Positions 28,633 to 54,558 of a DNA stretch of 64,000 nt are shown here, one piece after another. Position 1 is the stretch's first letter; each line of letters opens with the position of its first letter. Under the pieces are notes generated by a model, which was not told the DNA's origin, ran no database searches, and saw nothing but the letters and a program-made list of their open reading frames with translations. The position numbers were made by a program, and so were the translations under genes. Origin of the DNA: Eledone cirrhosa (lineage: Eukaryota); the NCBI GenBank assembly GCA_964016885.1, contig OZ024753.1, positions 22,010,001-22,074,000 of the forward strand. The letters are read 5' to 3'.

Positions 28633-29320
28633 TAACTCCGATATAAAACCTACAGCTGAGTACTTACCGATGATGTTGATCTTTTCTTCCTTTCGGGTTA
28701 TAGTTACTGTCGCTCAGAGAGTGGGATTGGCTCAGTGCACAGTCTTTCCTCACTTAAAAAAAAATCTTCACGCACAGGCATTGCACGATAGCATTAATTG
28801 AAAATAAATGGAGAAAGACTGTACATGAGGGGAAAGTTGCTTTTGAAGCATCTCGAATCGCATAAGAGAACGTAAAAAGGGGTGTGAGCAAAGGCATTGC
28901 TGTTGCATTTCGAGACAGCAAAGTTCCCCCCATGGTGCTGACATGCAGCGTCTGTGCGAGACTCTGCCTCAGCAAAGCTGGACTCGAAAGTCATCTTCGT
29001 AGTCATAAAGTAAGACCAGTAGTTGACTACCAGGCTGCTGTTGGAGATGCTACTCATCATGCTTGACAAGCATGTGGTAGAGAATGTAAATCAGCAGGAG
29101 GGCTCAAACGACATGCAAAAGAACATGAAATCCAACCATAGCTGGCTACTGCCAGGGAATGTTTTGGTTGCCGACTCTGTGCAAGACATTTTAGATCATT
29201 GTCTGGGCTAAAGAGCCACATTCGATCGCAGCACCTTTAATTGTTAATATATATGTTTTGTTTTTGTTGTTGTTTTCGTGGAATGGCCATACTCGATAAC
29301 GGCGGTGGTGCCAGCCATCA
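28632..29320 (+). mobile_element. Internally deleted non-autonomous RTE derivative (5'-UTR piece fused to the 3' zinc-finger end and 3' stem-loop)
   Basis: 28632-28793 matches 35165-35327 in reverse; 28803-29240 aligns with 53807-54244 (CSVCARLCLSKAGLESHLRSH); ends TGGCCATACTCGATAACG..GCCA. Confidence 0.9.
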
Positions 29321-29360
29321 TGTTTGTATGTCTTTACATGGAATAGAAATATATAATAAT

Positions 29361-29362
<2 letters not shown>

Positions 29363-29448
<86 letters not shown>

Positions 29449-29489
29449 GGTATGTATATAGGTATGTATATAGGTATGTATATATATAT
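29363..29489. repeat. (TA)n microsatellite, representative of many long TA-rich tracts (e.g. 29915-29971, 31089-31298, 36750-36870, 40780-40864, 43968-44290, 49819-50151)
   Basis: Direct inspection; these tracts produce most of the YIYI-type ORFs in the track. Confidence 0.97.
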
Positions 29490-29912
29490 TCCGTTTATCG
29501 TTTTCGGTGCACCCGGCCGATTAACCGACTCGATATGCAAATTGAGCTACTCAGCCGTTAATATGCATAAGGTAAGTATATACGTTCAACAATCTGGCAG
29601 GAATGTATACGTTGCTGACGATAGCTAATAAGCTTGAAACTAGTACAGCGTTCCTTTGTCAGTGTTGAACAAACGAGCAACGATGGTTGCTAGACACTAC
29701 GGCTTAATACGGGATGGTTGTTTACAAACACACCGAGCATTATAATAAATGTTCGATGAATCCATACGTACATATATATAGGTGTGCATGTATGTATATA
29801 TATATACATACTACTGTACGTCTGTATACATATAAGTATGTACCTGTACATACTTATATTTAAGTAACAGCCGTACTAAGAGTGGGAAATGAAATTTCGT
29901 TTCATTTTTTCC

Positions 29913-29971
<59 letters not shown>

Positions 29972-29975
<4 letters not shown>

Positions 29976-30863
29976 CGAAAACATAAGTCAATTGCATGAA
30001 CTCATAATCCTTTATTTACTGCTATATATATTTCGATGATAGCCATTGAATGGCTATGACTCACTAGGCAGTTAGTCAGTTCTTAGATATCCCAGCTCTG
30101 TGTTTATAGTGTTGATGGTATCAGAGTCTTGGGACATATGAGCTTGTTAGGAATAATTTAATGTTGTCAGCAGGAATAGTCTTAATTCTCATTGGTCAGT
30201 TTGTAGATGCTAGTAGGGTTGGTATTTGACCTCAAAGAGGCAGGTGGTGTTGTAAAGTTCAAACCGTCAGGCAAGATGACAATAGTTCCATATGACTGAT
30301 TTTCACACAACGGATTCCTGGTCAGATATATATTCAATTAAGGTTAATAGTATGAAATAGATACTACATGTCATTCTTAAATTGAGGAATTTATGTGGAG
30401 TGGTGCTACTGAAAATTATGGTTAGAGTAGAAAATTTACTTATGTAGGTTGGCTTGCACTACACTCATACCCACCTCCACAGACACACACACACATCCAC
30501 ACATACAAATTGAGGAATTAATGTGGGGTGGTAATACTTAAAATAATGGTTAGAATCAAATACTTAGATAGTTTAGAAAATTTAGAAATAAAAGGCACGC
30601 ACAAGTATATATATATATATACATAAAATATATATATATACTGAAAAAATATATATATATATATAAATAAAATACATATATATATATATAAATATATATA
30701 CATACATAAAATATACACACACATAAAATATACACATATATAAAATATACATACACACATATATATAAAATGCGCACATACATACACATATATATAAAAT
30801 ATATACATATATATAAAATATATACATATATATATATATATAAAATACACACATATACACATA

Positions 30864-30870
<7 letters not shown>
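29972..30870 (-). mobile_element. PLE pseudo-LTR-type element, copy 1, with a mutated hammerhead (30018-30072)
   Basis: Colinear with 37838-38890 from the same terminus GTGACGAAA; core reads CUAGUGA instead of CUGAUGA. Confidence 0.7.
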
Positions 30871-30917
<47 letters not shown>

Positions 30918-31101
30918 TAAATCATGTCTTTAGAATCATCAGATAAAATAAATATTATTTCTTCTTCTAATTAGCATAATTAACCATATAAAAAATCAAT
31001 TAGATCAAGCTATAAGAAGAAAGGCTCTTATGGAGAAATCTCCGACAAATAACCGAACGTAGCCTCTTCGCGGTGGCCCCAATCGGGTATATATATATAT
31101 G

Positions 31102-31134
<33 letters not shown>

Positions 31135-31135
31135 G

Positions 31136-31196
<61 letters not shown>

Positions 31197-31237
31197 GTAT
31201 ATATATCTGTATATATATATATATGTATATATATATG

Positions 31238-31302
<65 letters not shown>

Positions 31303-32410
31303 ATAAGAAAGTACGACGAGTTAAAGAAATGTATGGTACATATACAGCCGGCACAGATGTGCGGAAATTGAAAACACGCCAGGTCCGCAGAAACTGGCAT
31401 TCCCCAAAATCCTCACGTTCGGTCGCTCAATCCAATGTGCCAGGTGAAATTCACTGCATGTCCAAGTTGGCGTTCAACCAATGTACCGCACCGCATACAA
31501 CTATACCGCAGTAAATACAAATCGTGATGGCTATTCCGTTAGATATAGAGAAAAGTGTATATAGGAAACTCCGCTTCCAGAATCACATATAGCAAAATGA
31601 GCAGATATTGTTATAATAATAGGCGGGTTTATTATAGTGAGTGCAAATTTCTGTAGAATATATAATATATATAGATTTTTATTTTTTATTTTAGATTTTG
31701 GGTGTATATCCCAGACCGCCTATGGTGATAAATCCCCTGGGTATAGGTTTTGGAAAAATAGTGTTATCTCACTTAACGTCGGAACTGGAACATGTGATTG
31801 GTAGGGTGCGGATATGATAAGGAGAATCGACCTGTTACAAGGCGTTATAATTGGAGTACACCATCCCTCATATGGACTATCATACATGTAAGGCTGCACC
31901 ACTGCTAACCAACTATTCTTTTCACAGACTCATGCTTGCAAACTCTATTGATCTGCCTGTACACCTTCTTTTTGCACTGCTTGTGCTCTGATGCAGCTAT
32001 GCTTTGCTTTGTCTTATATTTTTGTGGGGTTTCCGGGCTTTTTGTTCCTTTATTGTTTTGTATTTTTATATTTATCTCTTTTCTTATCCCTGTATTTTTG
32101 CACTTTTTTATTTTTTTTAAATATTATTTTCTTATTGTTTCTGATCATGCTGAGTAATACCCTCACTCATCCCTTGATACCCTCTCCCAACCTCTTTATC
32201 ATCTATTGCACCATTTAAGTGATAAATTTTTGGTGCAATTTTTAATTTTTAATTTTTAAATTTTTAAGACATTTTATGACATTATGTGCATCATGTATTC
32301 TGTCTTTTTCCATATAGCGCTGGCCTCGGGACCACCCTGCTGGTCCTTTAACCTTGTTCTGGTGACGCAGCTCGATGGAGCATGCAACTACTGATATACT
32401 CATGTTTATA

Positions 32411-32457
32411 GGCTCTGATGATTCCTGCCATGGTGTATGGATGAAACACCGTTAGCT
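32411..32457 (+). ncRNA. Minimal type-I hammerhead ribozyme candidate (PLE pLTR type)
   Basis: GGCU-CUGAUGA-UUCC..GGAU-GAAAC-ACC-GUU-AGCU; stem I GGCU/AGCU; AATAAA follows immediately. Confidence 0.65.
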
Positions 32458-33361
32458 AATAAAACAATGTATTTCTAAGCACTCTTTGGTTATTCCTATA
32501 ACTATATGTATATATATATATATATACGTATATATATGTATATATGTATATATATATATATATCAACGTATATATATATATTTATAAATGCGTGTATATA
32601 TATATGTATATACACATGTATATATGCACGTGTAAGTTTGTGTGTGTATATATATATATTCATTTATTTATGAAAGTATATAAAGATGCGTAGGTGAGTG
32701 CGTTTGCACACACAAAGGTAGCTCCCCCCCAACATGTATATACACATACATACACTCATGTATATATACATACATACACACATGTATATATACATACATG
32801 TATATATACACAGACATTTATAAAGTAATATATAATTTTGTTTATTCAGCTCTTTTTCGTTGAGCATTATTTTGTTGTTTTCAAGCAAGAAATATAAAAA
32901 GTATATTTATGTCTATCTTGTCATGGAGAGGAAATTTAGTTTCCGATGGTTAATGGACTTTTTGTATATCTGTAATTAGTTTACGTATTAACTAACCCTC
33001 TACCATAAATCCCACTCAAGCCAACGCAGCTCAATTTATCTCTTTTGTAGTGGATATGAAATACATAAAAACGACATATAATTGGACTGCATCCATTGTT
33101 ATCGTCTCTTTCACGACATTAGAATGTCAATTCTGGCAGGGTCACAGCTGGTATGCCATAGCAACTGAAACCGGGGGGGGGGGGGGCGTCACACGGAAAG
33201 GGCGGGAAAAAACCGGGAGGTATTACAGTCTTTCATGTACGAGGGTGTTAAGCCTCGGACGTTGGATGCAACCTGTGGTGTTGCTCTTTCCCCCGGCATT
33301 TAGTGTCAGACACAGGTTTCGTTGGCCACCAAACTGAAGATAACAAGCTGACATTTCTGGT

Positions 33362-34195
33362 TATCACAAGATGGATATGTTGCCCTTTTCCATGACTGTT
33401 TTTGGTTGATGTTCATACTATGTTAGAAGTTTGGATGTCATGAGAGCGGTAGAGCATCCAGTGCACATATTTAGCAATGCAATTGTGTCTTTTGATATAG
33501 TCAGTTTTTGCCAGCTCTGGACACCTGGTGATAATATGATCTACCGTTTCTTCATGTTTATAGCATATTCTGCAGTTCCATCTTTCATTATTCTGTATCT
33601 ATAGACCTGAGTGTTTAAAGATTGGTCTTGTGCAGCAACTAAGAGGCCCCCAGTCTCTACTTTCAAACCAGCACTTCTGAGACAGGATAGTGAGCCATGC
33701 TGATTGTCAGAAAGTTGTTCTGGGGATCTACCATGTAGTGGTTTTGACTTCCATTCACGGCTTATTTCCTCTGTTTGGAGTTTCTTTGCTTTGATCTTCA
33801 CAGTCATAGCTAGCTGTGCAACACTTGTTTTTTTTTCTATGGGTATGTCTTGTTTCATATTCAGTTTTTGCCTAAATTTTCTTGCCTCTTTTGTTATTGA
33901 GGGTAGTTTCTTAATTTGTTTATGCTTAAGTACAGACATAAGGAGTTAATCTCAGGTGTAGTAGAGGTAGATATCCAATCCAATGGTTGCTATTTTGTTT
34001 ACAGCTTCCAGTTGGCTTGAGAGTGGTGCATGTTTTCTGTTGTCAATAGTTTCCTTGTCTCAGTCTCCAACCTTTGTAGTTCTTACAGGTTCCAGTTTAT
34101 GATGTTAAAGCTGTATGTTACAACTGGTACTGCTAGACTGTTAATGGCTGTGAACTTGTTGCAGAGGCTTAGCTCACGTTTTGTTACCAATCTTA
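33362..34195 (-). pseudogene. Second R4/Dong-like LINE fragment (RT thumb to CCHC knuckle)
   Basis: WKSKPLHG, LKVETGGLLVAAQDQSLNT, ETVDHIITRCPELAKTDYIKRHN, YEHQP, with frameshifts and stops. Confidence 0.8.
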
Positions 34196-34384
34196 CTCTC
34201 CTTATGTAACCCGTCAGCATTCATTTTCTCAATGGCCGTATCTTTGTTCCAGATGTTATTTAATTCAGCATTCAGTTCATTATCTGCTTCGGTTGCTTCC
34301 TCAAGTCTCTCAGCCTCCTCACCCTCATTCCCTACTACTATTATTATTATTGTTTTTATTTTCTTTCATTATTGTTTCTAGGAT

Positions 34385-34830
34385 ATATGCCGAGTGTCTT
34401 CCTGACACCTAGGGCAAATAAATTCACATTGTACATTGGTAAGCCAGTTAATACAGCACATTGATTATAATAAAAAAAAAGCCAGTATACATATATACAC
34501 ATGTGCATATGCGTATGTAAATACAAGGAGGGATATCAATCTTACAGAGATAGTGCTCTTCTCAATACTTGTGCAGTACCAGTCGAACAATTTTTTGCAT
34601 CTCGTGCAGAGAGGGCAAACCAGGAATCATTCGCAAATATTGCTCTGTTCCTTTCTTGATCATACCCAGTCCTCCCACAATCACTGGTATTGTAACGGCC
34701 TTGAGGTGCCACATTTTCTCAATTTCAATAAGCAGATCTTTATATTTTCGTAGATTGTCAAATTCTTTTGCCGCGATATTGTAATCACATGTGATGCTCA
34801 TACTTATCAATAAACAGACCTTGTTATGTT

Positions 34831-34832
<2 letters not shown>
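34385..34832 (-). pseudogene. R4/Dong-like LINE 3' end (RLE C-terminus plus 3' UTR)
   Basis: CLLI...KE....KYKDL.IEIEKMW....TIPVIVG.LG motif; flanked by (TAT)n/(TAC)n on the left and (TC)n on the right. Confidence 0.8.
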
Positions 34833-34882
<50 letters not shown>

Positions 34883-35096
34883 CCTCTCTCTGTCCCCCCT
34901 CTCTCTCTCTCTCTTATACACCACCTAGAAAAGCTATAATGTTATCGATATAAAGACATTTTTGAAAACCAACTACGTCGTCGTAATTTTATATATGAGA
35001 ATACACACATTTTGTCAATACAACAAACTTAATTTTCCATATCTTTTCATAAATTTACCACTCACTTTTAAACTTTGAACGTCTTATACATATATT

Positions 35097-35445
35097 ATGG
35101 CTACCCCCTCGTTATCGAGTATGGCCATTGCACGATATACCATTATTAATAATTATTAATTAATTCTATCGTGCAATGCCTGTGCGTGAAGATTTTTTTT
35201 TTAAAGTGAGGACAGACTGTGCACTGAGCCAATCCCACTCTCTGAGCGACAGTAGCTGTAACTCGAAAAGAAGAAAAGATCAACATCATCAGTAGCTACT
35301 GAGACGCAGGTTCTACATCGGAGTTATCCAAGTTTCCTGAGTTACCTTCTCCTAGAAGAATGCCCTGACAAAGGCTAGGGTCCTTCACTCCCAGTAGTTT
35401 AACCGGGCGATTGGGTGTCCAGCCCGACTATTTCTATGTTCCCGC
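35097..35445 (-). mobile_element. Minimal (~350 bp) bipartite RTE-derived SINE-like element
   Basis: RTE 5'-UTR motif GTCAGGGCA..CTAGGAGAAGGTAACTC to CACAGGCATTGCACGATAG, an AT-rich linker, then GTGCAATGGCCATACTCGATAACGAGGGGG as at 54518-54547. Confidence 0.85.
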
Positions 35446-36447
35446 GCATATATATGCACATGCATATATATACACATGCATATCTATACACATGCATATA
35501 TATATACATGAGCACATTCACACACACATATATACATATATATATACATATATATACATGTATACATGTATATACATATTTACACGTTTAAATCACCAAA
35601 CCTTCCCCGAAATATGGGATCTTGTGCAAATGTTTGAAATTAATGTTAAAAATCTTAAAACAAAGATTGTAAATTGCCAGATCATTGAGAAGTGTGTAGA
35701 AGGAAACGGTGCATTATTAGGTTAGGTTTCGATCTCGACTTTGCTTTTAACCATTCCCGGGTCAACAAAACAATTATTCTTAGTCAAGATATGAGGCAGT
35801 TCTAATCGGCAGCACCGGAATATCGCTCTTAACAAATTTGTGGAATATTTTTCCTGAAAAAGGATCTCAGCGAAGCAATTGTATCCACTTTCTCGGGCTT
35901 CATTGCCATGTCACAAATGATTATCCATTTCGTCTCACATTTCCTTACACTGTCAATTGATAATGTATTTGTTATGTTATTTATTGGCTAGTTCTTGTAT
36001 CAACTGCGATAACATCGTCTCTTCTCTTTCTTTATATAATTATTTCTGATCATTTCAATTTGCTCGCTCGCCTTCTCAATTTCTGACTCTCTCTCTCTTT
36101 TGTAATGTAATTTGATAACTTGTTTAAATGGAAATACTACCAAATGTTAGCATAATCATTAGGATAACCAATAATATTCCACCAATAATATATATAGAGA
36201 GAATAATTACAGAAACGTAGATTCATTGTAATATATAGCAATAGAAACATAAATATAGTCGTGCTTACGCTACACATGCACATATATATATCTAAACGTA
36301 TATATACTTATACATATAAATGATGAATATATATCTTTTCATTCTGTTAGTTAATCATGGTGTGTTAGTATGAAAAGCACTCAACGTGACGCAACTCAAT
36401 CATCTTTGGTGTAAGATTCTGTTGGTGGTGTATGGACGGAGTTAAAC

Positions 36448-36744
36448 ATTATTGAATAAAGCGACAGGAGGACGGAAATTAAAAATTCCTTTAAAGTTTT
36501 TATTCTGCAGTTACTATATATATTTTAATGACTAGTAAGATTCCAGTGACATCATCAGGTGTATTTCATAACAGTTATAAAGGAAACATGGTGGACACAG
36601 AGTGTGTACATGGAGAAAAAAACAAAGATAAAAATACTTGATCCGAGGGGCCCTATGTCCAGTTCTTTAGACTTACTTCCCTCTGTTCCTGCAGAATAAA
36701 AACTTTAAAGGAATTTCAACTTTCCGGCCGCCTATGGCTTTATT

Positions 36745-36751
<7 letters not shown>
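36448..36751. repeat. ~62-bp inverted repeats (36448-36510 / 36689-36751) enclosing a decayed hammerhead (36510-36563, minus); PLE-type inverted pLTR remnant
   Basis: Arms are reverse complements (AATTCCTTTAAAGTTTTTATTCTGCAG / CTGCAGAATAAAAACTTTAAAGGAATT); the minus strand shows CUGAUGA..UAAAAUAUAUAUA then AATAAA. Confidence 0.7.
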
Positions 36752-36842
<91 letters not shown>

Positions 36843-36870
36843 CATACATACATACACTTATATATATATA

Positions 36871-37795: not shown

Positions 37796-37797
<2 letters not shown>
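36871..37797. repeat. Near-identical direct repeat of ~360 bp (36871-~37229 and 37440-37797) with a ~210-bp spacer
   Basis: TTGAAAATCCAAGTCTCCACTT at 36871 and 37440, colinear to ATCTTAATTTTG. Confidence 0.93.
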
Positions 37798-37837
<40 letters not shown>

Positions 37838-37841
<4 letters not shown>

Positions 37842-38899: not shown

Positions 38900-40777
38900 A
38901 ATCAGGTTTAATAAAACATGGTTTAGATGACTCCTAACCAGTAGAGGATACGGTGGACCATCAACCATAGGGACCGCAAACCATGGGTGGTTGTTGTTGT
39001 CCATTGGTCATTGGTACGGGGTGTAGGGGACTTACCGGGGGGGGGGGGGGAGTTGTGGGAGGTCGTAACCGGGGTTTATCCATATAGCTTGAGGAAAGTT
39101 CCCGTCCTTACGTGTCTGCAGGCACCGAATAAGTCGGCCCTTCTGTTTAATAGCTTGGTTCCGCCATGAAGAATCTCGAGTGTCACACTAAGACAGAGTT
39201 TCCAAATACCAGACCCGCCTCTGTCTGGGGGAACCTTTCTAACCACGGACCAGACCAGAAAATGCGGGGTCTTTTCGAGTTTGAGCTTCCAGATCAATTC
39301 AGAAAGGGCCGTACACTTCCTCTTATCTATTCTGTTAAAGTAATGGCAATGGTTATGCCACCGAACTTTGAAGCTCGTCGCTGTGGATCCTATGTAGTGG
39401 TGCTCCGAGTTAGGGGTTGTGACCTTCGCACCTGTAGACCACGTTTTTGGTCATGCATTCATTACTCAGGGGGCATAGCGATGGGTCTCTGCAATTACAT
39501 GACTTCTTAATCCCCACCACATGTACCGCGTGGTTAGCATCACTCGGGGTTGGCTGGGTAGCCTCCGCAATCAGCACAGGGTCGTGGTGTAGTGACAGAT
39601 AGGGGTCTGGGAGTGTTACTACTGGTCACCGAGGTATTAGGTGGGCGACTCATGCCCCTGAGGGTATTGGTCCGGGGTACCCTTGGGTCATCTCGATCAT
39701 GTCCCTTAGGGTTATAGCTGATCCTATCGCTGTGGGACGCCTTAGCTCCTTAGCTAGAGCTGGGTTATAGTAATCAGCGTTACTATTGAATATTTCTTTA
39801 TTGGCCGACAAGTTAGAGATCCTGTCAGAGACACTCTTAATTACGGCCTTAACTATAGATCTAGGGTGATTAGACTCAGCGTTGATATACACCAGCTTCT
39901 CATTGGGTTTATGATATGGGTGGTGTAGATTGGTGTTGAGGTTGAGGGTGGTGTCCAGGAAATTCACTACTTTTCTATTGGGTTCCATCTCTACCTTAAG
40001 TCCTACCTTGCTAAAGAAGTGCCTAATTCTCCTCTTCATATTTTCGACCATTGTGGTGCTGTGGTCCACCACGGTGAAGAGTGCGTCGTCTCGGTACAGC
40101 CCGCCGCACAGGCTGGGTATTTCTCTCCTGATCTCGTAGAGTATGTATATCCCAACCAAGTCCGTTAGCTGCGTGGAGTCACTGGAGCCCATTGTAATGT
40201 CAAAATTATTTGACCAGTCACTCCGGGTCCATATGTCCCCACCGAATCGGATCAGGGTCTTTCTGGCGGTGTGTATGATTCGGACCTCGTTGCGTGTTAG
40301 GTCTGTCCTATTCATCGCGAATATGAGTGCTTTGTTAAGGACCATGGGCGAGATAGAGGAGTAGTAATTATTGATGTCTAGTTGTATGAAGCTAGTCCTA
40401 TGTTTTTCACCATGCTGGTGCAGGACCAGAGTTGTAACCTTATTTTACTCTTAAGTGTGGGCAGGATTCTATCTAAAATGCTTTTGCTAATAACCTCCAT
40501 GTCTGACCGGGAGGGGTCTATCAGTCTGACCGGCAGTTTGGTTTGTGGTCCTTAATGGTAATCCTCCGCTCCCTTGGTTGGTATGGGGCCGTCCTATCAT
40601 CTATACCAAGACCAGAAACGATCTCATAAGCCTTGATGTTGATATCCTCCAGGGTGGCTTCGGGCGTCTTTTTGTAGCTTTTTCTCAATTCCATGAGGAT
40701 TAGCTCATGGTAAAGTTGAACGTCCATGCTGTAAAGGTTGTTGGTTTTGTCGGCATGGACGAGTATTCCTGTAGATT

Positions 40778-40779
<2 letters not shown>
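38900..40779 (-). mobile_element. Penelope-like element, decayed RT plus GIY-YIG endonuclease (Naiad-like motif style)
   Basis: ITIKDHK, FIQLDINNYYSSI, FDITMGS, GLYRDD, FLD, YINAESNHP; endonuclease end IWKLK...LCL...LLNRR..FGACRH. Confidence 0.85.
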
Positions 40780-40864
<85 letters not shown>

Positions 40865-40868
<4 letters not shown>

Positions 40869-41570
40869 TCTAGCCATTTCCTTTTCCTATCCTCGGGCCC
40901 CGTTCCCTGGATATGACTCGAACACCTTCTCTTCCTCCCTGTGATCTCGTTGTTGATCATCCAGCTCTCCTTACATCCAGATCTGTCAACCGCTCTCTCC
41001 ACACTTCTGATCTTCTCTATCAGTGCCTCCTCTCTGACCACAGTGTAAGCGGTACAGAGCTCTTCCCTCATCACCTCCACAGTCTCCATCCTCTCCTCCG
41101 TAGGATCAGCATAGAATTGGTCCCTGGCAGCTTTCAGGTGTTCTCTGTCTGCACACACTTTTGGGTTTGCAGAGCTGGCGTGCCTCCCTTTGTCCTTTTT
41201 CCTCGGCACCAGGGTTTCACTTGCTTCCGCCACTGCATTGGTGAAGTGCCCGTACCTCCTCGTCACACTCTCCTCAGTCCATCCAATCTCTCTCTCCTCT
41301 GACTCTCCACACAGAGCACTAAACCTGTTTCTCACTTCCACTGTGAACCTCTCCTGTAGCTTATCATCTTCCTTGAAAGCTCCCCAGTCATAGATTGTTT
41401 TCCGGGGCTGAGCCTTCTCTTTCTTAAGCTCACGCGGACCTCACTCATAACAAGCCGGTGGTCACTACCCAGTGTACTGAAATAGCTGTATGGTTCCGTG
41501 TTCAGAACACTATTCCGCCACTTTTTCCTCACCAGAATGAAATCAATCTGGGACTTGGACAGGTGCATAT
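40865..41570 (-). pseudogene. Inverted 5' segment of an RTE-like LINE (APE C-terminus plus linker)
   Basis: SQIDFILVRKKWRNS and SDHRLV are APE motifs; the segment ends at ...KRKWLDH. Confidence 0.85.
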
Positions 41571-43173
41571 CTGAGGACCCTACTAGGAGAGCCACCCTCC
41601 ACAGCCCAGAGCACCGGGGAGATCAGGCGGCTGTTTGAGGAACTGGATGTTGAGACAGAGCCCTTCACCAGAGAGGAGCTTCAGAGAGCCAAGAAGAGGA
41701 TCAAGGAGGGCAAGGCTCATGGAGAAGATGGAGTGGCATCAGAGGTGATGAAGAGGTGTGATTTTGATGATATCATCCTGGGGTTCTGTAACGGGGCACT
41801 GGAGAAAGGAGTTGCCCCGAATCAGTGGAGGATCAGTAACATCGTCCCAGTGCCAAAGAAGGGAGATCTCTCTAACACCAACAGCTACCGGGGGATCTCA
41901 CTGACGTCACTTGTGGCAAAGACCCTCAACAGGATGATTCTTAACAGGATCCAGCCTGAGATGGAGAAGAAGCTCACGGACAACCAGAACGGCTTCAGAG
42001 AGGGTAGATCAACCACCAGTCACATCCTGATGCTGAGGAGGATATTAGAGGGAGCTAGAGCAAAGTGTCTTCCTGCGGTCATGGTGTTCATTGACTTTAG
42101 GAAGGCCTTTGATTCTGTGGACCGTTACTGCCTGATGAAGATCTTACAGGCTTATGGAATCCCCAAGAAGATAGTGGATCTGATATCACTGCTCTACAGC
42201 AACACCAAAGCCCAAGTCATTACACCTGATGGGATGACAGAGTTCTTTGAGATACTGGCTGGAGTGCTGCAGGGAGATACAGTGGCTCCCTACCTTTTTA
42301 TCATCGTAGTGGACTATTGTATGCGCCTTGCACTGGAGAAACACCAGGACTCTGGCTTTACTGTAGCACCGGCTCAGAGCAGGAGAGTTAGGGCGAAAAA
42401 GGTATCGGATGCTGAATTTGCCGACGACATAGTTTTGGTGACAAATACAGTGAAGGAGGCAGAGGATTTGATGCGGGAGGTTGAGACTGTGTCGATGAGT
42501 GTGGGGCTGAGAATGAATGAGACTAAAACAAAATATCTGGTAGAGAATGTTGAGAAGCCAGAGGGGATCACTAATGTAGGCGGGAGGCCGCTGGAATTGG
42601 TTGAGGACTTCCTGTATTTGGGAGCAAAGATTGGGAATACGGAAGATGATGTGGTTGAGAGGAAGAGCAAGGCCTGGGCGGCGTGCCACAGCTTGAGATC
42701 GGTGTGGAAGTCGGACCTTCGTAGAGACCTGAAGATCCGCCTCTTCATTGCTGTAGTGGAGTCTGTGCTGCTGTATGGGTCTGAGACTTGGACACTGACC
42801 AAGAAACTCACTCAGATGGTGGATGGGTGCTACACGAGAATGCTGAGGATGGCTCTGAACATTAATCAGTATACACTGAGGATGAAAAACTCAGAGCTGT
42901 ATGGGAGCATCCCAAAAGTCAGCTCAAAAGTGACACAGAGGAGACTGAGGTTGGCTGGACATGCTCACCGACATCCAGAGTTGACATTGCACTCAGTGCT
43001 CCTGTGGGAGCCCCTACATGGACACACTAGAAGGGGAAGACCAAGGTTAACGTATGTTGATGTCCTAAGGACAGAAACTGGTATGTTGTAGATGCAGGAC
43101 ATGGCAGCGATAATGAGGGACAGAGACCGCTGGAGAGAACTCGTCCATGGATCTCGGGGATTTTATCCGCCTT

Positions 43174-43175
<2 letters not shown>
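41571..43175 (+). mobile_element. RTE-like LINE 3' segment (RT to C-terminus, premature stop at 43089-43091, natural stop ~43175)
   Basis: YRGISL, QNGFR, FIDFRKAFDS, GVLQGD, FADD, FLYLG, LLYGSETW, RRLRLAGH, RGRP; reading resumes MQDMAAIMRDRDRWRELV; (TA)n tail. Confidence 0.93.
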
Positions 43176-43228
<53 letters not shown>

Positions 43229-44412: not shown

Positions 44413-44619
44413 AATATATGAACAATCATCTGGTTGTGGAACCAACCAACCAACCGGAAATTTATAAATTCCTAAATTTATAAATTTAATTTATAATAAA
44501 TTGGAGTGAAACAACTGGTGCGTGTGTTTCTTATTGGCAACATGACCCTCCCAAAGTATAACAATAATGGTTTCAACACACGTTTTCAGATAAAGAATCT
44601 TGCTAAACAAATTCAGAAA

Positions 44620-44659
<40 letters not shown>

Positions 44660-44904
44660 AAAGGATAACAAGTACGATTGGTTACTCCTTCATTACATTT
44701 ATTGGTAGGTGACGCGCGTTTCGCCACTGATCAGCTCAAGGTTCGATCTGTATCGATCCTACCTGAAACTCAATGATCGGCAGCTCGAGGGACCCTTTGA
44801 AATGCTATAAGAAAATGAAATACATGCTATGTGGTAAAGACAGAGTTTCAAGAGTTTTCAATATGAGTTGTTTTGATTGGTGGGAAAGATCAAAGGGATG
44901 TACT

Positions 44905-45652
44905 GGCCTGTAGTGTATGTGAGGGTGGATGTGATGATAAGATGTTGGTGACGGTCGCTGGCTGTGATGGTCTGTGGTGTGGTGGTGGCGGATTGGCTGT
45001 CTTGTAGTGTATATGGTGGTGGATGTGATGATAAGATGTTGGTGACGGTCGCTGGCTGCGATGGGCTGTGGTGTGGTGGTGGCGGATTGGCTTTGTCCTG
45101 CTGTGTATGTGGGGGTGGATGTGATGATAAGATGTTGGTGACGGTCGCTGGCTGCGATGGGCTGTGGTGTGGTGGTGGCGGATTGGCTTTGGCCTGTAAT
45201 GTATGTGGGGGAGGATGTGATGATAAGATGTTGGTGACGGTCGCTGGCTGCGATGGGCTGTGGTGTGGTGGTGGCGGATTGGCTTTGTCCTGCTGTGTAT
45301 GTGGGGGTGGATGTGATGATAAGATGTTGGTGACGGTCGCTGGCTGCGATGGGCTGTGGTGTGGTGGTGGCGGATTGGCTTTGTCCTGCTGTGTATGTGG
45401 GGGTGGATGTGATGATAAGATGTTGGTGACGGTCGCTGGCTGCGATGGGCTGTGGTGTGGTGGTGGCGGATTGGCTTTGTCCTGCTGTGTATGTGGGGGT
45501 GGATGTGATGATAAGATGTTGGTGACGGTCGCTGACTGGGATGGGCTGTGGTGTGGTGGTGGCGGATTGGCTTTGGCCTGTAATGTATGTGGGGGAGGAT
45601 GTGATGATAAGATGGCGGTGACGGTCGCTGACTGGGATGGGCTGTGGTGTGG
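44905..45652. repeat. 96-bp minisatellite, 8 units, inside the PLE arm
   Basis: GTGATGATAAG at 44931, 45025, 45121, 45217, 45313, 45409, 45505, 45601. Confidence 0.97.
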
Positions 45653-46246
45653 GGGTAGTGGGTTGTCGGTAGACGGGTTGGCGTGTGTGGGGTGTGGTTG
45701 TGGTGTTGTTGTTTATGGTAGTGGCGTTTGTGGTGGTGTGGTGGATGTGTCGGTGGTGTTGAGTCCATGGGGAGATACATACCTAGACACTCTTAGTCTG
45801 ACAAATACGCTGTATATATACATACATATACATGCGCACATATACTGATATATATACATACGTACACACTTATATACACGCACATACACGCGCCCACATA
45901 GATCCACACATACATATATCTATATTCATATATACGCACATGTATGTGCATGCGCGCGTGTGGATATATACAGAGAGAGTGGAGGAGTATCGGTGGGGTG
46001 GCGTAGAACAAAGATAGAGGGAAGATTTGAGCCAATGGAGTTGGTGTTGTACATCTAGACATACACATACATACATACACACATACACACATACACACAC
46101 ACATACTCACATATATGGATATGCACACATACACGTACACACACGTATACATAAACATACACACATACATACATACACACATATATATATATACATATAT
46201 ATATATATTTATATATATATATATTTATATATATACATACATACAT

Positions 46247-46852
46247 ATGGTGGCTGCCAACTCGTTTTCGAGTACGGCCGCTACTTTTTATCCATGTAGG
46301 AGAACCCCTACCGATGCGCTGAACGAATGTGACTTTTTAGTCCAGCCACCGACTTGAAAACTCTGGTCCAAACACTACACTTGTGACAATTATTGACACA
46401 TAGTGCTGGGCCCAGTGTACCATGTGACGACAAGTGCAGAGAGATCTCCAGATATAAAGCAATGCCTGTGCCGTGAAGCTTTTAGAGTGAGCAAAGGCAC
46501 TGCACAAAGCCAGTCCCACTCTCTTAACCAAGATGATATTTACCAAAAAGAAGAACAAGTCAACATCATTTCATACCATCAGAGTTGCAGGTGTTATATA
46601 AGAGTTTTCCTTCTCCTAGAATTCTGCCTTGACAAGGCTAAGGGGTCATCTCTCCCGGTGACTTTGGATGGCCATTGACTCTTAAGACCTCCTTTTCCCT
46701 TTGACAGGTTTTGTTTTTAGTCCTGCAGGATGTCCAAAGTCACCCTCCTCACCAAGAAACCTTGGTGGGGTTGCCAGTTTAGTCGCCAACGACCCGACCA
46801 TGAGACAGGTTGTACTGGGATACATGTTACCAGTAGCACCAACTGGTGACCT
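46247..46852 (-). mobile_element. ~600-bp bipartite RTE-derived SINE-like element nested in the PLE arm
   Basis: Reverse complement of 50152-50758; absent from the matching position in the right arm. Confidence 0.9.
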
Positions 46853-47694
46853 GACATACATACATATACATACATGTATACGCACATATATATAAAAAGT
46901 ACTTACACACAGACACACGCACTTGCGTTGGTTCGAGAGGGAAGGTATGTGTTGGCGGTGTTGATGAAGTTAATGGAAGTTGAGGTATGGAGTTGTGTCT
47001 TGTGGTGGTGGTGGTGGAGTTGTGAGTGACAAAAATATACAGGATCGAATAATACGATGGGTTACAGGTTAAAAGGTGACATAGGGAACGCAGGGGAAAA
47101 CAAGTTTATGGACGTATAGCGATGTGTGTTGTGGTCATGGTGGTGGTGCTGGGGTGATATGTTCAACAAAATGATTACATGATCAGATGTTACGGTGGGT
47201 TACAGGGTAAGGCAGACGGAGGGCGGATATAACACAGTCGATCTGGGAGTGAGCGATGATATGTGTTGATGATGTTAATGATTGTTGAAGTATGTGGATG
47301 TATCTAGTGGTGGCGGTGGTGTTGTGTGCGACAGTACATTTACAGGGTCGAATTTAGTGTGGGGTTGTAGGTTAGGGTAGACAGAGGGAATATGGGGGAA
47401 TATGGTTGCGGGTGTGGATGGTAGACATATGACGATGTGTGCTGTGGTGGTGGTGGCGATGGTGTGATATGATCGACATTGTATTTTCTGGATCAGATGT
47501 TATTATGGTTTGCAAGGTAAAACCTGACAGAGAGAACAGATAGAACACAATGTTGCAAGGATGAGGGGTGTATGGCGAAGTGATTTTTGGTGGGGGTGAT
47601 GTATGCGGCATGATATACAAAATGGTTACATGCAATACAATAAAATAAATTCACTGAGATGGGCGATGGTGAGACGGGGCAGAGGTGGTTATTA

Positions 47695-48435
47695 TTATGC
47701 TGAGTCATGGTTAGTGTGTGGCCCTCCCCCGAATGTTTGTGCGGAAAATGTGTTCAGCCCGGTGTGTCTGCAATTGATAATTATGTCCGACCTATAGTTT
47801 ATGGCAGATTTTAATTTAATTATTTCTACCGCCTCAGCCAGGCATAACCTGCAGTGGTTTCTGTCACTGGTGAGTTGTGCCACGCGTCTTTTCACTGACC
47901 ACGAGATCTGGGGTTCGATGTTCCTGTCCTTGAGGTCCCAGATCAAATCGGCCAGTCTGGTTTGTGATTGTTTCAGGCTATGTTTAAAGGAGCTTCTTGG
48001 TTATACCAGCGCTCCTTAAACATAGTGGATGTCGCACCTATATATGAGTACTCTTTATTGCCGGCTGTGACATCGCACCGGTAAACAATGTTTTTAACGA
48101 GGCACACCCCGTTTAGTGGGCATTCGGCCCGTTTTTTGCAGTTGTAGTTGGGTGTAACCGGTGTGGTGGCACGTTGGTGGCATGCGGTGTGGATCTGGTA
48201 TGTGGGTTGTTGTGATGTGTTGTGTGTGTGGTTTCGTTCTGGGTTGTGGTGGTGGTTTGTTGTGGGGCAACCATGTGTTTTCGTATTTTTGTCCTATTAG
48301 TGTGTGCTATTGTGTGGCCTAGATTTGGGCTGTGGAGAAAGAGAATTTTACAGTGTGTCTATTGAAGAGCTTGTGGTATTTATGTGTGCGTGGAAAAGAT
48401 TGTTCGAGAGCCCTGAAGAAGGTTCCCGGTATATT
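47695..48435 (-). pseudogene. PLE RT C-terminal/linker region and GIY-YIG endonuclease (frameshifted)
   Basis: [13 protein letters not shown]; NCKKRAECPLNGVCLVKNIVYRC..YIGATSTMFKERWYN; IWDLKD..CRLCLAE..IN.RSD....CRH. Confidence 0.85.
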
Positions 48436-48561
48436 GGTGGCGACGTGTATAGAATATACACCGGGAACCTTCTTCAGGGCTATCGAACAACCTTTTCCAC
48501 GCACACATATATACCACAAGCTCTTCAATAGACACACTGTAAAATTCTCTTTCCCCACAGC
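48328..48561. repeat. Fold-back palindrome, ~107-bp arms with a ~17-bp spacer
   Basis: 48328-48435 is the near-perfect reverse complement of 48453-48561; both strands encode PGTFFRA(L/I)[21 protein letters not shown]. Confidence 0.95.
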
Positions 48562-48706
48562 ACCAACAAGACACAACTCCACACCTCAAAATCCATTAAC
48601 TTCAGCAACACCGCCAACACATACCTTCCCTCTCGAACCAACGCAAGTGTGTGTGTCTGTGTGTAAGTATTTTTTATATATATGTGCGTATACATGTATG
48701 TATATG

Positions 48707-48769
<63 letters not shown>

Positions 48770-49815
48770 GTGTGAGTATATATGTATGTGTGTGTATGTG
48801 TATGTTTATGTATACGTGTGTGTACGTGTATGTGTGCATATCCGTATGTGTGAGTATGTGAGTACAACACCATCGCCATTGGCTCAAATCTTCCCTCTAT
48901 CTTTGTTCTACGCCACCCCACCGATACTCCTCCACTCTCTCTCTATATATCCACACGCGCGCATGCACATACATGTGCGTATATATGAATATAGATATAT
49001 GTATGTGTGGATCTATGTGGGCGCGTGTATGTGCGTGTATATAAGTGTGTACGTATGTATATATATCAGTATATGTGCGCATGTATATGTATGTATATAT
49101 ACAGCGTATTTGTCAGACTAAGAGTGTCTAGGTATGTATCTCCCCATGGACTCGACACCACCGACACATCCACCACACCACCACAAACGCCACTACCATA
49201 AACAACAACACCACAACCACACCCCACACACGCCAACCCGTCTACCGACAACCCACTACCCCCACACCATAGCCCATCCCAGTCAGCGACCGTCACCGCC
49301 ATCTTATCATCACATCCTCCCCCACATACATTACAGGCCAAAGCCAATCCGCCACCACCACACGGCAGTCCATAGCCAATCCGCCACCACCACACCACAG
49401 ACCATCACAGCCAGCGACCGTCACCAACATCTTATCATCACATCCACCCCCACATACACTACAGGCCAGTACATCCCTTTGATCCTTCCCACCAATCAAA
49501 ACAACTCATATTGTCAAACTCTTGAAACTCTGCCTTTACCACATAGCATGTATTTCATTTTCTTAAAGCATTTCAAAGGGTCCGTCGAGCTGCGGATCAT
49601 TGAGTCGGGTAGGATCGATACAGAACGAACCTTGAGCTGATCAGTGGCGAAACGCGCGTCACCTACCAATAAATGTAATGAAGGAGTAACCAATCGTCCT
49701 TGTTATCATTTCAATATATTACACTCTGTATAGCTCTACACCTCATCACAGAAGTGAACCAAAACATCGAGTGCTCTCCCGGGTGAACCTGCAGTAATTC
49801 CAAGTTACACCTCCT

Positions 49816-49850
<35 letters not shown>

Positions 49851-49867
49851 TATATGTATGTATGTAA

Positions 49868-49942
<75 letters not shown>

Positions 49943-49952
49943 TATATGTATG

Positions 49953-49984
<32 letters not shown>

Positions 49985-50002
49985 TATATAAGTATATGTA
50001 TG

Positions 50003-50088
<86 letters not shown>

Positions 50089-50151
50089 TATATGTATGTA
50101 TATGTATATATATATTTATATATACGTATATATATATATATGTATATGTAT

Positions 50152-50758
50152 AGGTCACCAGCTGGTGCTACTGGTAACATGTATCCCAGTACAACCTGTC
50201 CCATGGTCGGGTCGTTGGCGACTAAACTGGCAACCCCACCAAGGTTTCTTGGTGAGGAGGGTGACTTTGGACATCCTGCAGGACTAAAAACAAAACCTGT
50301 CAAAGGGCAAAGGAGCTCTTAAGAGTCAATGGCCATCCAAAATCACCGGGAGAGATGACCCCTTAGCCTTTGTCAAGGCAGAATTCTAGGAGAAGGAAAA
50401 CTCTGATATAACACCTGCAACCCTGATGGTATCCAATGATGTTGACTTGTTCTTCTTTTTGATAAATATCATCTTGGTTAAGAGAGTGGGACTGGCTTTG
50501 TGCAGTACCTTTGCTCACTATAAAAGCTTCACGGCACAGGCATTGCTTTATATCTGGAGATCTCTCTGCACTTGTCCTCACATGGTACCATGGGCCCAGC
50601 ACTATGTGTCAATAATTGTCACAAGTGTAGTGTTTGTACCAGAGTTTTCAATACGCTGGCTGGACTGAGAGGTCACACTCGTTCAGCGCATCGGTAGGCG
50701 TTCTCCTACATGGATATGAGGTAGTGGCCGTACTCGAAAACGAGTTGGCAGCCACCAT
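50152..50758 (+). mobile_element. ~600-bp bipartite RTE-derived SINE-like element
   Basis: RTE 5'-UTR motif TGTCAAGGCAGAATTCTAGGAGAAGGAAAACTCTGA; relic finger HKCSVCTRVFNTLAGLRGHTRSAHR* (~50620-50697); 3' TGGCCGTACTCGAAAACGAG..GCCA. Confidence 0.9.
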
Positions 50759-50959
50759 ATGTATATGTATATATATGTAAGTTTTTTACATTCATTTAAA
50801 TTATTGATTTATTGATATTTTATTTGAGTGACTCGAATCTTCCTAGTCGTTCTTTTTCGGCTGTACGGGTGATTTTTAGGCACAATCTCTATGTGTTGGT
50901 AATTTAACGATGGTTATAGCTCTGATGCGAAGGAGCTTCGACGTTACGATCTTGACATC

Positions 50960-53900
50960 GTGGCTTTGTCTGAGACGAGGTTAGCTGGAGATGGTCATCT
51001 TGCGGAATTTTGTGGAGAATATACATTCTTCTGGAAAGGAAGAGATGAAGGAACCAGAAGAGAGGCTGGGGTGGGATTTGCTGTTAAGACTGTACTGGTG
51101 AATAAATTAGAAGAATTCCCAGTGGGGATTAGTGAGCGTCTTATGTCCATGAGAGTTCCGCTGGACAAGGGAAGATATGCTACCCTGGTGAGTGTGTATG
51201 CTCCAACTATGAATTCTGTCGATGAAGAAAAACTGTCCTTTTACCATGCCTTGAAAGGTGTTTTAAGAAATATCCCTCAGGCAGACAAAGTCATCGTGCT
51301 TGGTGACTTTAATGCTAGAGTGGGTAGGGATTTTAACACATGGAATGTAATCGGAAGGCATGGGGTGGGAAAGTGTAACAGCAATGGTATGCTCTTGCTG
51401 CAGATGTGTGAGGAGCTGGATCTGTGTGTTACCAACACCATGTTCCAACAAAAGAACAAATTCAAGACCACATGGATGCATCCTGCATCTAAGGAATGGC
51501 ATCTTTTGGACTACGTCCTAGTCAGGATGCGTGACAGACAGGATGTGCAGTGTGTTCGTGTTCTTCGTGGAGCTGAGTGCTGGACGGACCACCGCCTGGT
51601 GCGCGCAAAAGTGAATCTAATCACCAAACGTAAAATCCGGGCTCCTGGTGTTACCCTGCCCAAAAGATTGAATGCTGCTCGTCTTAAGGATAAAAATGTG
51701 AAGAGGACATTGGAAGAAGAGATGCAGGCTGCAGATCTTGGTGAGGATTGGCCGACCCTTAAAAAGTCGGTTTATGATGTAGGCAGGCGTGTTCTGGGAT
51801 TGGTGCAGAGAAAACATCAGGACTGGTTTAATGAGAATGATGTACATATAGAAGACTTGTTGGCTGATAAGAGGCGTGCTCTGTCACGCTACTTGACGGC
51901 AAAACCACAGGAGAGGAATACGTTGCATGAGGAGCTCAGGGATGTAAAATCACGTGTTAGGCGGAGTCTTTCTCAGATGAAGGATCAGTGGTGGAGTGAG
52001 AAGGCTGGTGAGATACAAACTGCGTCTGATTGCAATAACACAAAGCTGTTGTACAGTCTCTTGCGTGAGGTTTATGGACCGTCTTCTTCTCTGGTGACAC
52101 CGATTCGCAGCAGGGATGGCAAAGAACTTCTTCGTGACTCACAGGGAATTCTACGAAGGTGGCGAGAGCACTTTGATGATCTTTTGAATCAGCCGTCTGT
52201 CGTCAGTGAAGATTTCCTCAATCTCATTCCGGAAAGTCCTGTGAAAGTAGCTCTCGCAGAACCTCCGACACTTGTGGAGGTTGCAGTGGCTATTTCGAAG
52301 CTGAACAGTGGAAGATCTCCAGGTATGGATGGCATACATGCTGAGCTCCTACAATATGGTGGTGAGAGACTCCTGCAACATCTTCACTCTCTGTTTGGAA
52401 GGATATGGGCTAATGAATCCGTGCCTGAGGACTGGAGAGATGCAGTAATGGTGGTCTTGTACAAGGGAAAGGGTAACAGGAATGATTGTGGGAACTACAG
52501 AGGTATATCATTGCTTTCTGTCGTGGGGAAAGTTTTATGTAGGGTGCTTCTGGACCGTCTGCTGACACACATTGCAGATTGTGTCCTTCCTGAAAGTCAA
52601 TCTGGTTTTCGTGTTGGACGCGGCACTACTGATATGATCTTCTCAGCTAGACAGCTCCAGGAGAAGTGCATTGAACAGGGCTTGGATCTGTATCAGGTTT
52701 TTGTCGATCTGACAAAGGCTTTCGATACTGTCAACAGAGATGCATTATGGAAGATTCTCCAGAAACTTGGTTGCCCTGATAAGTTCCTTGCTTTAGTTAG
52801 GTCTTTCCATGACGACATGAAGGCTTGGGTTAATGTCGGAGGTAACATGTCGGAGCCTATCTCAGTAAAAAATGGAGTGAAACAGGGGGATATTCCAGCA
52901 CCGACCCTGTTTGCCATATACTTTGCAATGGTTTTCTGTGTTGCATTCAGGAATTGCGAGCATGGTGTTTACATCCGATATCGAACCTCAGGCAGCATAT
53001 TTAACATCAGGCGCTTTGCTGCGAAGACAAAGGTATTTACATCGGTCATAAGAGACCTCTTGTATGCAGATGATTGCGATCTTGTAGCGCACACAGAGAG
53101 TGATATGCAGCACATTTTGAATGTATTTTCTGACGCTTGCACTGCCCTGGGTTTGACTGTCAGTCTCAAGAAAACCGTCGTCATGTACCAACCTGCACCT
53201 GGTGGGCAGTACACTGAACCAAACATCTATGTGTATGGCAAACGACTTGGAGTGGTTGATCAGTTTGTCTACCTGGGAAGCACTGTCAATCGATACGGCA
53301 ACCTTGACAGTGAAATCTCACTTAGGATTAGGAAAGCAAGTGATGCTTTCGGAAAGCTAGAAAGGCGACTCTGGGGTCGGCGAGACATATGCAGGAGGAC
53401 AAAGGTAAGGGTGTACAGGGCATGTGTACTCTCTTGTCTTCTTTATGCCTGCGAGACCTGGGTCACATATCGACGCCACCTTAGGCAATTGGAGCGTTTC
53501 CATCAGATGTGTCTCAGACGGATACATGGCGTTCGCTGGAGGGACCACATCAGTGATGTCGAGATTTTGGAAAGCTCTATGTGTGACAGTATAGAAGCTC
53601 TTGTGCTTAGGCAGCGACTCCGTTGGAGTGGTCACCTTGCCAGGATGAAGGATTCTAGAATACCAAAACAACTCTTCTATGGAGAGTTGGTTAAAGGAAA
53701 ACGACCGCCACATAAACCAAAAAAGAGGTATAGGGATTCCTTGAAGGCCTCTCTGAAAGACGCTAACATCTCTGCTGATACATGGGAAAATATTGCTGCT
53801 GATCGTAATAAATGGAGAAAGACTGTATATGAGGGAAAAGTTGCCTTTGAGGCATCTCGAATCGCACACGAGAAAGTAAAGCGGGACGTGAGGAAGGGTA

Positions 53901-54244
53901 TTGCTGTTGCACTTCCAGACGGCGAGGGTCCTCCTATGTTTCTGACATGCAGCGTCTGTGCGAGACTCTGCCTAAGCAAAGCTGGACTCGAAAGTCATCT
54001 TCGCAGTCATAAAGTAAGACCAGTGGTTGACTACCAGGCTGCTGTTGGAGATGCTACTCATCATGCTTGCCAAACATGTGGTAGAGAATGTAAATCAGCA
54101 GGAGGACTCAAGCGACATGCAAAAGTACACGAACTCCAACCACAGCCGACTATTCCCAGTAAATGTTTTGGTTGCCGACTCTGTGCAAGACATTTTAGAT
54201 CATTGGCTGGGCTAAAAAGCCACATTCGATCGCAGCACTGTTAG
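50960..54244 (+). CDS. RTE-clade (BovB-like) LINE ORF: APE endonuclease, reverse transcriptase and three C-terminal C2H2 zinc fingers; slightly 5'-truncated
   Basis: 1094 aa uninterrupted: ALSETR, SVYAPT, LGDFNARVG, TDHRLV, YRGISLL, QSGFR, FVDLTKAFD, GVKQG, YADD, YLGS; homology extends upstream to AKELRRYDLDI (~50927) with no native start. Confidence 0.95.
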   Translation: MALSETRLAGDGHLAEFCGEYTFFWKGRDEGTRREAGVGFAVKTVLVNKLEEFPVGISERLMSMRVPLDKGRYATLVSVYAPTMNSVDEEKLSFYHALKGVLRNIPQADKVIVLGDFNARVGRDFNTWNVIGRHGVGKCNSNGMLLLQMCEELDLCVTNTMFQQKNKFKTTWMHPASKEWHLLDYVLVRMRDRQDVQCVRVLRGAECWTDHRLVRAKVNLITKRKIRAPGVTLPKRLNAARLKDKNVKRTLEEEMQAADLGEDWPTLKKSVYDVGRRVLGLVQRKHQDWFNENDVHIEDLLADKRRALSRYLTAKPQERNTLHEELRDVKSRVRRSLSQMKDQWWSEKAGEIQTASDCNNTKLLYSLLREVYGPSSSLVTPIRSRDGKELLRDSQGILRRWREHFDDLLNQPSVVSEDFLNLIPESPVKVALAEPPTLVEVAVAISKLNSGRSPGMDGIHAELLQYGGERLLQHLHSLFGRIWANESVPEDWRDAVMVVLYKGKGNRNDCGNYRGISLLSVVGKVLCRVLLDRLLTHIADCVLPESQSGFRVGRGTTDMIFSARQLQEKCIEQGLDLYQVFVDLTKAFDTVNRDALWKILQKLGCPDKFLALVRSFHDDMKAWVNVGGNMSEPISVKNGVKQGDIPAPTLFAIYFAMVFCVAFRNCEHGVYIRYRTSGSIFNIRRFAAKTKVFTSVIRDLLYADDCDLVAHTESDMQHILNVFSDACTALGLTVSLKKTVVMYQPAPGGQYTEPNIYVYGKRLGVVDQFVYLGSTVNRYGNLDSEISLRIRKASDAFGKLERRLWGRRDICRRTKVRVYRACVLSCLLYACETWVTYRRHLRQLERFHQMCLRRIHGVRWRDHISDVEILESSMCDSIEALVLRQRLRWSGHLARMKDSRIPKQLFYGELVKGKRPPHKPKKRYRDSLKASLKDANISADTWENIAADRNKWRKTVYEGKVAFEASRIAHEKVKRDVRKGIAVALPDGEGPPMFLTCSVCARLCLSKAGLESHLRSHKVRPVVDYQAAVGDATHHACQTCGRECKSAGGLKRHAKVHELQPQPTIPSKCFGCRLCARHFRSLAGLKSHIRSQHC

Positions 54245-54377
54245 TTGCTATCGTGTGTTTGTGTGTGTATGTGTGTATATATGTGTGAGTGTATGTGTAT
54301 GTATGTGTGTGTGTATATATGTATGTATGTGTATGTATGTGTGTGTGTATATATATGTGTATGTATATATATATGTA

Positions 54378-54412
<35 letters not shown>

Positions 54413-54443
54413 CTTTTCCCTTTTTTTTTTTTTTTTTTTTTTC

Positions 54444-54491
<48 letters not shown>

Positions 54492-54510
54492 TTTTTTTTT
54501 TTATTTTTTT

Positions 54511-54558
54511 TGTTATTGTGCAATGGCCATACTCGATAACGAGGGGGCAGCCATCATA
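54511..54558 (+). other. RTE 3'-terminal stem-loop (TGGC..CTCG-ATAA-CGAG..GCCA) followed by a (TA)n tail
   Basis: Same motif ends the elements at ~29284, 35097(-), 46247(-) and 50725. Confidence 0.8.

Follow-up and report, generated by a model that had tools for sequence, protein, structure and literature searches.

Bipartite short retroelements derived from RTE LINEs are a known architecture (PMC5786205, PMC4844689, PMC7245038, PMC13023118), and the Bov-A, AfroSINE, WALLSI, MAR4 and AviRTE SINEs, like the short elements described here, join a piece of 5′-untranslated region (5′-UTR) to an RTE LINE 3′ end (Kojima 2018, PMC5786205). According to the same paper, few LINE groups yield bipartite derivatives, "for unknown reasons", while the term "bipartite recognition region" is used in PMC13023118. 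The 5′ module of the present elements matches by eye that of RTE-3_AMi, RTE-1_PSi and WALLSI (PMC5786205); the main text of that paper, however, is silent on pairing between the two parts and contains neither "palindrome" nor "stem". The 3′ terminus resembles that of stringent LINEs, in which a terminal hairpin, including the RTE/Au-SINE hairpin, stands before a short tandem tail and is held to be recognised by the reverse transcriptase (RT) (PMC6007223; PMC5135761). Those structures involve the 3′ end alone; in the present elements a second helix would be completed by sequence from the 5′-UTR.

Long-range pairing between RNA ends has been described for Ty1, in which the CYC5/CYC3 interaction is required for reverse transcription and was seen in particles but was absent from RNA assembled in vitro (PMC3592414). 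Ty1, however, is an LTR element that is tRNA-primed and undergoes strand transfer, whereas RTE is a non-LTR element primed at its target. The R2 SIDEs and trypanosome RIME are likewise internally deleted non-LTR elements with both ends, but R2 retains its 5′ end in the form of a self-cleaving ribozyme, with the two ends folding separately (PMC3414825). Among cephalopods, RTE-2_OV of Octopus vulgaris, compared here by description only, is an RTE LINE with a C2H2 finger and a microsatellite-filled 3′-UTR, with a reported open reading frame (ORF) of 1109 amino acids versus 1181 in the family A LINE described below (PMC9115989).

Within the open literature, key subscription papers and figures being outside its scope, no description of pairing between the 5′ and 3′ parts of RTE elements was found, and a word search of the accessible text of PMC13295347, PMC3414825, PMC12222951, PMC13708176 and PMC9115989 gave no mention of it. 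There is an appreciable chance, though we think it the smaller one, that the junction hairpin of SINEs has already been drawn in Gogolevsky 2008, Gilbert 2008, Okada and Hamada 1997, Nikaido 2003 or patents; that the long-range covarying form in autonomous LINEs is already in print is less likely.

Bipartite elements in the Eledone cirrhosa window

The window is a stretch of 64,000 nucleotides of contig OZ024753.1 from Eledone cirrhosa. Its plus strand carries a 5′-truncated copy of the family A RTE LINE (50919..54560), which encodes an endonuclease, RT and C2H2 fingers up to a stop at 54244, has a microsatellite-filled 3′-UTR and is 99% identical to the full-length copy L091. The 3′ arm of this copy (54516..54525), pairing 10/10 with the 5′-UTR arm of full-length copies, is directly followed by the 3′-terminal hairpin (54526..54552), which was read from the sequence and also obtained by folding. 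On the minus strand, a short bipartite element of family A (35090..35509) consists of a 5′ module and a 3′ tail, with the 5′ arm at 35167..35178, the 3′ arm at 35126..35137 and 29 nt between them; the 12/12 pairing claimed for these arms in an earlier note, drawn from the letters of this stretch, was recovered in full and is Watson-Crick throughout. A short bipartite element of family B (50143..50760, plus strand) comprises a 5′ module, the last ~130 nt of an ORF, including a zinc-finger remnant, and a 3′ tail. Its arms (50541..50554 and 50713..50726) do pair 14/14 with four G-U as the note had it, but two of those G-U pairs are private mutations. A second family B copy on the minus strand (46245..46862) pairs at 12/14, as reported, between 46451-46464 and 46279-46292. 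Both family B copies lie inside long inverted repeats at 45541-46852 and 48675-50780 (segments of 699, 411 and 219 nt, 90-98% identical) and may not be independent insertions.

A further element on the plus strand (28632..29318) is a single-copy chimera of a truncated family A 5′ module, 444 nt of the LINE ORF end and a tail. Its arms (28779-28793 and 29271-29285) do show the 13/15 pairing first noted, but its junction occurs once in the whole 3.0-Gb genome, so that this 28.8-kb element is not an amplified family. The 15/15 match with two G-U proposed between 28779-28793 and 54511-54525 is also present in the letters, but it takes its arms from two different elements; neither match, therefore, is independent evidence, and the chimera was rejected in that role. 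A conserved hairpin of the 5′ module, obtained from a consensus fold of 13 such modules, lies just upstream of the arm at 28717..28756 and again at 50482-50520.

The remainder of the window holds other repeats. Positions 1-23649 are a satellite array of a 28-bp unit in about 845 copies with 90% matches. An unrelated second LINE with an RVT_1 match (40700-43176) has its 5′ part (about 40700-41540) inverted relative to its RT part (41541-43091), an arrangement that we take to resemble L1 twin-priming inversions. Two broken frames on the minus strand at 39076-40444 presumably resemble a Penelope-type RT and nuclease, and a Pfam search with the 264-aa frame among them returned no match. Another non-LTR family is represented by broken frames at 25561-28532 and 33541-34924 (minus), one of which adjoins the 28.6-kb chimera.

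The full-length family A LINE

The window copy starts at 50919 and has no 5′ arm of its own in the window. In full-length copies, the 5′ module ends in CATTGCACGA, which pairs 10/10, contiguously and with one G-U, with TTGTGCAATG, located 4.1 kb downstream of the 5′ arm at the foot of the terminal hairpin. Among 50 long family A loci (20 of the 40 best DNA matches and 30 of 41 protein matches), the exact 5′ arm is present in 46, the exact 3′ arm in 44 and both in 41, so that the full-length parents do carry the 5′ arm, as the earlier note would require. AT-rich sequence and microsatellite start directly outside both arms, which means that the conserved UTR blocks end at the helix.

Family A is a young family: the best 40 genome matches to the window LINE have 99-100% identity, and all 41 protein matches to the homolog P0002 are stop-free. 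The single 1181-aa ORF of L091 places an AP-type endonuclease before the RT, without an ORF1 (Pfam Exo_endo_phos and RVT_1), and the 3′ end consists of a hairpin and short tandem repeats with no poly(A). Together with the by-eye UTR match to Repbase RTE entries in PMC5786205, this architecture points to the RTE clade, the RT tree being one that held no named RTE references. In the older family A LINE ends L260, L269, L289 and L301, the 3′ arm is fully Watson-Crick with the 5′ arm, whereas the young subfamily has one G-U at that point.

Two amplified short families

Short family A elements are 92% identical to the family A LINE, in the 5′ module and the tail alike, and a first look gave 2,502 (A) and 3,124 (B) candidate copies of bipartite short elements. 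The usual family B 3′ arm is GATATAAAGTAGTG, found in 23 of 26 parsed copies (30 were taken, and 4 did not parse), and it pairs 14/14 with the 5′ arm CATTGCTTTATATC, with two G-U. Between families A and B, three adjacent pairs are altered on both sides, which bears out the proposal that the letters change while pairing is preserved. The helix measures 12-14 bp in the short families versus 10 in the LINE. Mutations in single genomic copies arise post-insertion and were rejected as covariation.

The tail motif occurs 37,786 times in the genome, and 74 of these tails depart from both arms at four diagnostic bases; the 30 of the 74 that were inspected are either A or B copies altered by deletion, mutation or truncation, or tails lying in unrelated flank. 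Among the first 70 listed tails, a small sample from one contig (C1) and with one tail motif, 53 have both arms (49 B and 4 A), 9 belong to truncated short copies and 8 to LINE ends, and no other head was found. Five of these 70 (L269, L270, L272, L290 and L295) are truncated close to the distal end of the 3′ arm, within 17-32 nt upstream of the hairpin; the RT could have stopped at the helix, or the truncation could reflect microhomology between element and microsatellite target.

When an autonomous family B parent was sought by pattern, there were 0 matches, and in a search with the 60% homolog P0002 the 30 fetched loci were family A (one did not parse). The family B head (50143-50340) resembles the extreme 5′ ends of the distant RTE relatives L137 and L182. 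The distal half of the family B arm is complementary to a conserved motif further upstream in the 5′ module (50401-50412 with 50548-50559), which makes an alternative fold possible. An Rfam scan of three loci, one per family, found no ribozyme or tRNA family, and its matches were to microsatellite only, far below gathering scores.

Covariation of the arms in distant relatives

An alignment of 40 homologs led to 80 metagenome loci, of which 24 were apparently full-length; exclusion of duplicates (L121, L131), of loci without a 3′ end (L141, L190) and of one without a 5′ region (L169) left 19. The 5′-UTRs of these relatives have three features in common, namely a hairpin, a linker rich in A and a short motif. 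Beyond the motif the sequences diverge, and the consensus fold of 13 modules leaves this region unpaired. It is after this same motif that the arm of the relatives is placed, which differs in sequence and pairs with the 3′ end of the same element. The anchor is present in 13 of the 19, and these, together with L091 and L064, make up the swap test (n=15), in which the RT regions of 14 full-length elements are 44-73% identical. In four relatives without the anchor (L127, L136, L137 and L140) a compact helix is the best 5′-UTR site; of the other two, L119 comes with no more than 251 nt of upstream DNA, and in L128 the 5′-UTR scan reveals no clear helix. A scan of viral contigs gave 3 pattern matches, none of them a relative.

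In the swap test, the 34-nt window after the anchor was paired with the 30 nt before the terminal hairpin for every 5′ × every 3′ end; the anchor patterns and register were fixed after the sequences were viewed, with the same windows serving test and control. For eight elements (6 metagenome elements plus families A and B), the cognate mean was -20.1 kcal/mol versus -11.7 kcal/mol for non-cognate pairs, and among 40,320 permutations the observed energy was reached by the true matching alone. When the pattern was relaxed and a second anchor added, the 15-element test gave -19.1 versus -11.1 kcal/mol, a difference that 0 of 1,000,000 permutations reached. The cognate partner was the best in its own row for 10 of 15 elements; against shuffles at the 5% level, 12 of 15 passed and 3 failed. 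When the window was slid from -120 to +120 nt, the pairing excess was lost at offsets of more than 10 nt from the anchor. Two-strand ensembles, which took local 5′ structure into account, had at least 5 arm pairs in 14/15 cognate versus 1/45 non-cognate combinations.

Covariation was scored by these swap tests and by a hand-set register, not by R-scape. In that one register, pairs form in 55 of 60 cells across six elements, and a double-sided change is found in 9 of 10 columns; compensatory change thus occurs at homologous helix positions. The covariation across families that the earlier note called for is accordingly seen as a preference for the true arm matching, and its core claim, a conserved, covarying 5′-3′ helix ending at the foot of the 3′ hairpin, is supported by the swap tests and the full-length copies. 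Arm position, complementarity and covariation are established at the level of sequence, as is the occurrence of the arms in young, intact LINEs and in the two short families that have amplified.

Published consensuses

Comparable helices can be read by eye in printed consensuses. In the PMC5786205 supplement, the printed ends of RTE-3_AMi and RTE-1_PSi pair 10/10 and 9/9 in the same place, with an A-U to U-A swap between the two, BovB pairs 10/10 and BovB_VA, _Ta and _Plat 9/9, with three double-sided changes among these, and RTE1_LA pairs 8/8; the helix of RTE-11_AMi is interrupted, and that of RTE-4_PPo has only 6 bp. Short elements in the same supplement include MonoRep87A (9/9), MonoRep87B (12/12), WALLSI1 (9/10) and BOVA2 (11/11). 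Both ManaSINE1 consensuses pair 7/7 and GymnSINE has a bulged helix (PMC4844689 data file 5), CoeSINE4/5, HaSE1 and SINE2-2_ACar show weaker hairpins, and in the Ceph-SINEs displayed in the published supplements no helix was seen by eye. The platypus MonoRep87 tail, listed as of unexplained origin (PMC5786205 supplement), closely matches the 3′ ends of L115 (4540-4590) and L133, with the helix in register.

In plants, Au-like and TS SINEs are reported to have only the last 76-100 nt in common with RTE (PMC6007223, PMC3747384), and the 5′-UTRs of tobacco RTE are described as highly variable (10.1101/2022.11.04.512097), from which it follows that the helix rule may fail there. The proposal that the helix is kept by every non-autonomous derivative is thus supported only for the two amplified short families here and for most animal SINEs read in the two supplements, and the reports on plant RTE-partner SINEs speak against it.

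Folding predictions

Predicted stability gives a less favourable picture. The helix forms in 5/5 short A copies with pair probabilities mostly above 0.9, which is trivial given the 29-nt loop. Whole-RNA folding of family B, however, assigns it a probability of 0.00-0.02 in 5/5 copies, and the minimum free energy structure of the full-length LINE has no 5′-3′ helix, the A arm lying in a local hairpin instead; forcing the helix where the whole-RNA fold omits it costs 4.0 and 5.5 kcal/mol. An unanchored 20-nt scan ranks the arm first among 5′-UTR partners for only 9 of 20 elements, and first over the entire element for 4 of 20. Folding whole UTRs as unrestricted duplexes was dropped, since it produced sprawling hybrids and called several hairpins wrongly. 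Thermodynamics alone fails to single out the helix.

Interpretation and alternative explanations

Covariation indicates selection for pairing and is silent on which step needs it. We consider it rather probable that the RTE arms, 7-16 nt at the end of the 5′-UTR module that covary with the bases before the 3′ hairpin, close a helix in the RNA and so create a composite site that the element's protein would need for starting insertion; the covarying helix is likely to be part of the RTE RNA recognition site. Pairing in RNA is suggested by the tolerance of G-U pairs, bulges and internal loops, and the composite role by the fact that the helix always ends at the hairpin foot and that families lacking a protein of their own keep or lengthen it. 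Weak predicted stability suggests that the helix would close with the help of protein. One composite recognition or priming site would then be built from the 5′ module and the 3′ hairpin, and RNAs without the 5′ arm would be poor templates, so that new families would be founded by internal deletions sparing both arms. The shorter loop of deleted elements would make the helix easier to close. The helix may, in addition, promote the very deletions from which bipartite families arise, although intact LINEs would not retain it for that reason alone.

The main rival holds that the helix is real and selected but serves another step instead of RT recognition: it could keep the 5′ end close to the priming site for 5′-junction formation or second-strand synthesis, or control translation or stability of the single-ORF RNA. 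The covariation data fit any step that requires pairing, end-to-end pairing is required for reverse transcription in Ty1 (PMC3592414), and the competing local pairing of the family B arm could be a switch. We nevertheless regard this explanation as unlikely, if worth serious attention: the helix end is always at the foot of the 3′ hairpin, 5′-truncated insertions are common, so that the helix does not ensure full-length products, and a role in translation only is difficult to reconcile with protein-less short families whose helix is not just retained but extended (12-14 bp versus 10).

It is improbable that the complementarity is a functionless by-product of RT template switching or repair that copied one end onto the other, or of deletions at inverted repeats. 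Such an origin would suit the deletion junctions of short elements, which fall no more than about 20 nt from the 5′ arm, and the local inverted copy of the B arm in one copy (L245), but the match is kept in intact autonomous elements whose arms are about 3.5-4 kb apart and whose RTs are 44-73% identical, copying would not leave G-U pairs, bulges and internal loops, and arm position is fixed relative to two conserved motifs. Chance complementarity from post hoc window choice, for which it can be said that equally stable duplexes arise by chance somewhere in a 4-kb element and that the anchors were written once the sequences had been viewed, is highly improbable, since the swap controls used identical windows for cognate and non-cognate pairs and consensuses from two papers, unused for anchor setting, pair in the same register.

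Implications for RTE elements

Beyond the composite site favoured here, a broader reading, which is attractive but which we hold only tentatively, is that animal RTE LINEs may cyclize their RNA, with a protein binding site split between the ends and assembled only when the arms meet. Such a site would act as a full-length checkpoint, force parasites to keep both ends and supply a design rule for RTE-based gene-insertion templates. In gene insertion with RTE-1_MD, templates are flanked by both cognate UTRs and have been tuned by screening (PMC13708176); the helix predicts that the 5′- and 3′-UTRs of insertion templates must match, and which bases cannot change alone. The pairing also offers a route to match orphan SINE tails with their 5′ parts. 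For RTE biology, why parasites keep a piece of the 5′-UTR besides the 3′ tail is unexplained according to PMC5786205, and a helix at the junction is a candidate answer; if true, it would revise the model in which stringent LINE proteins read the 3′ end only.
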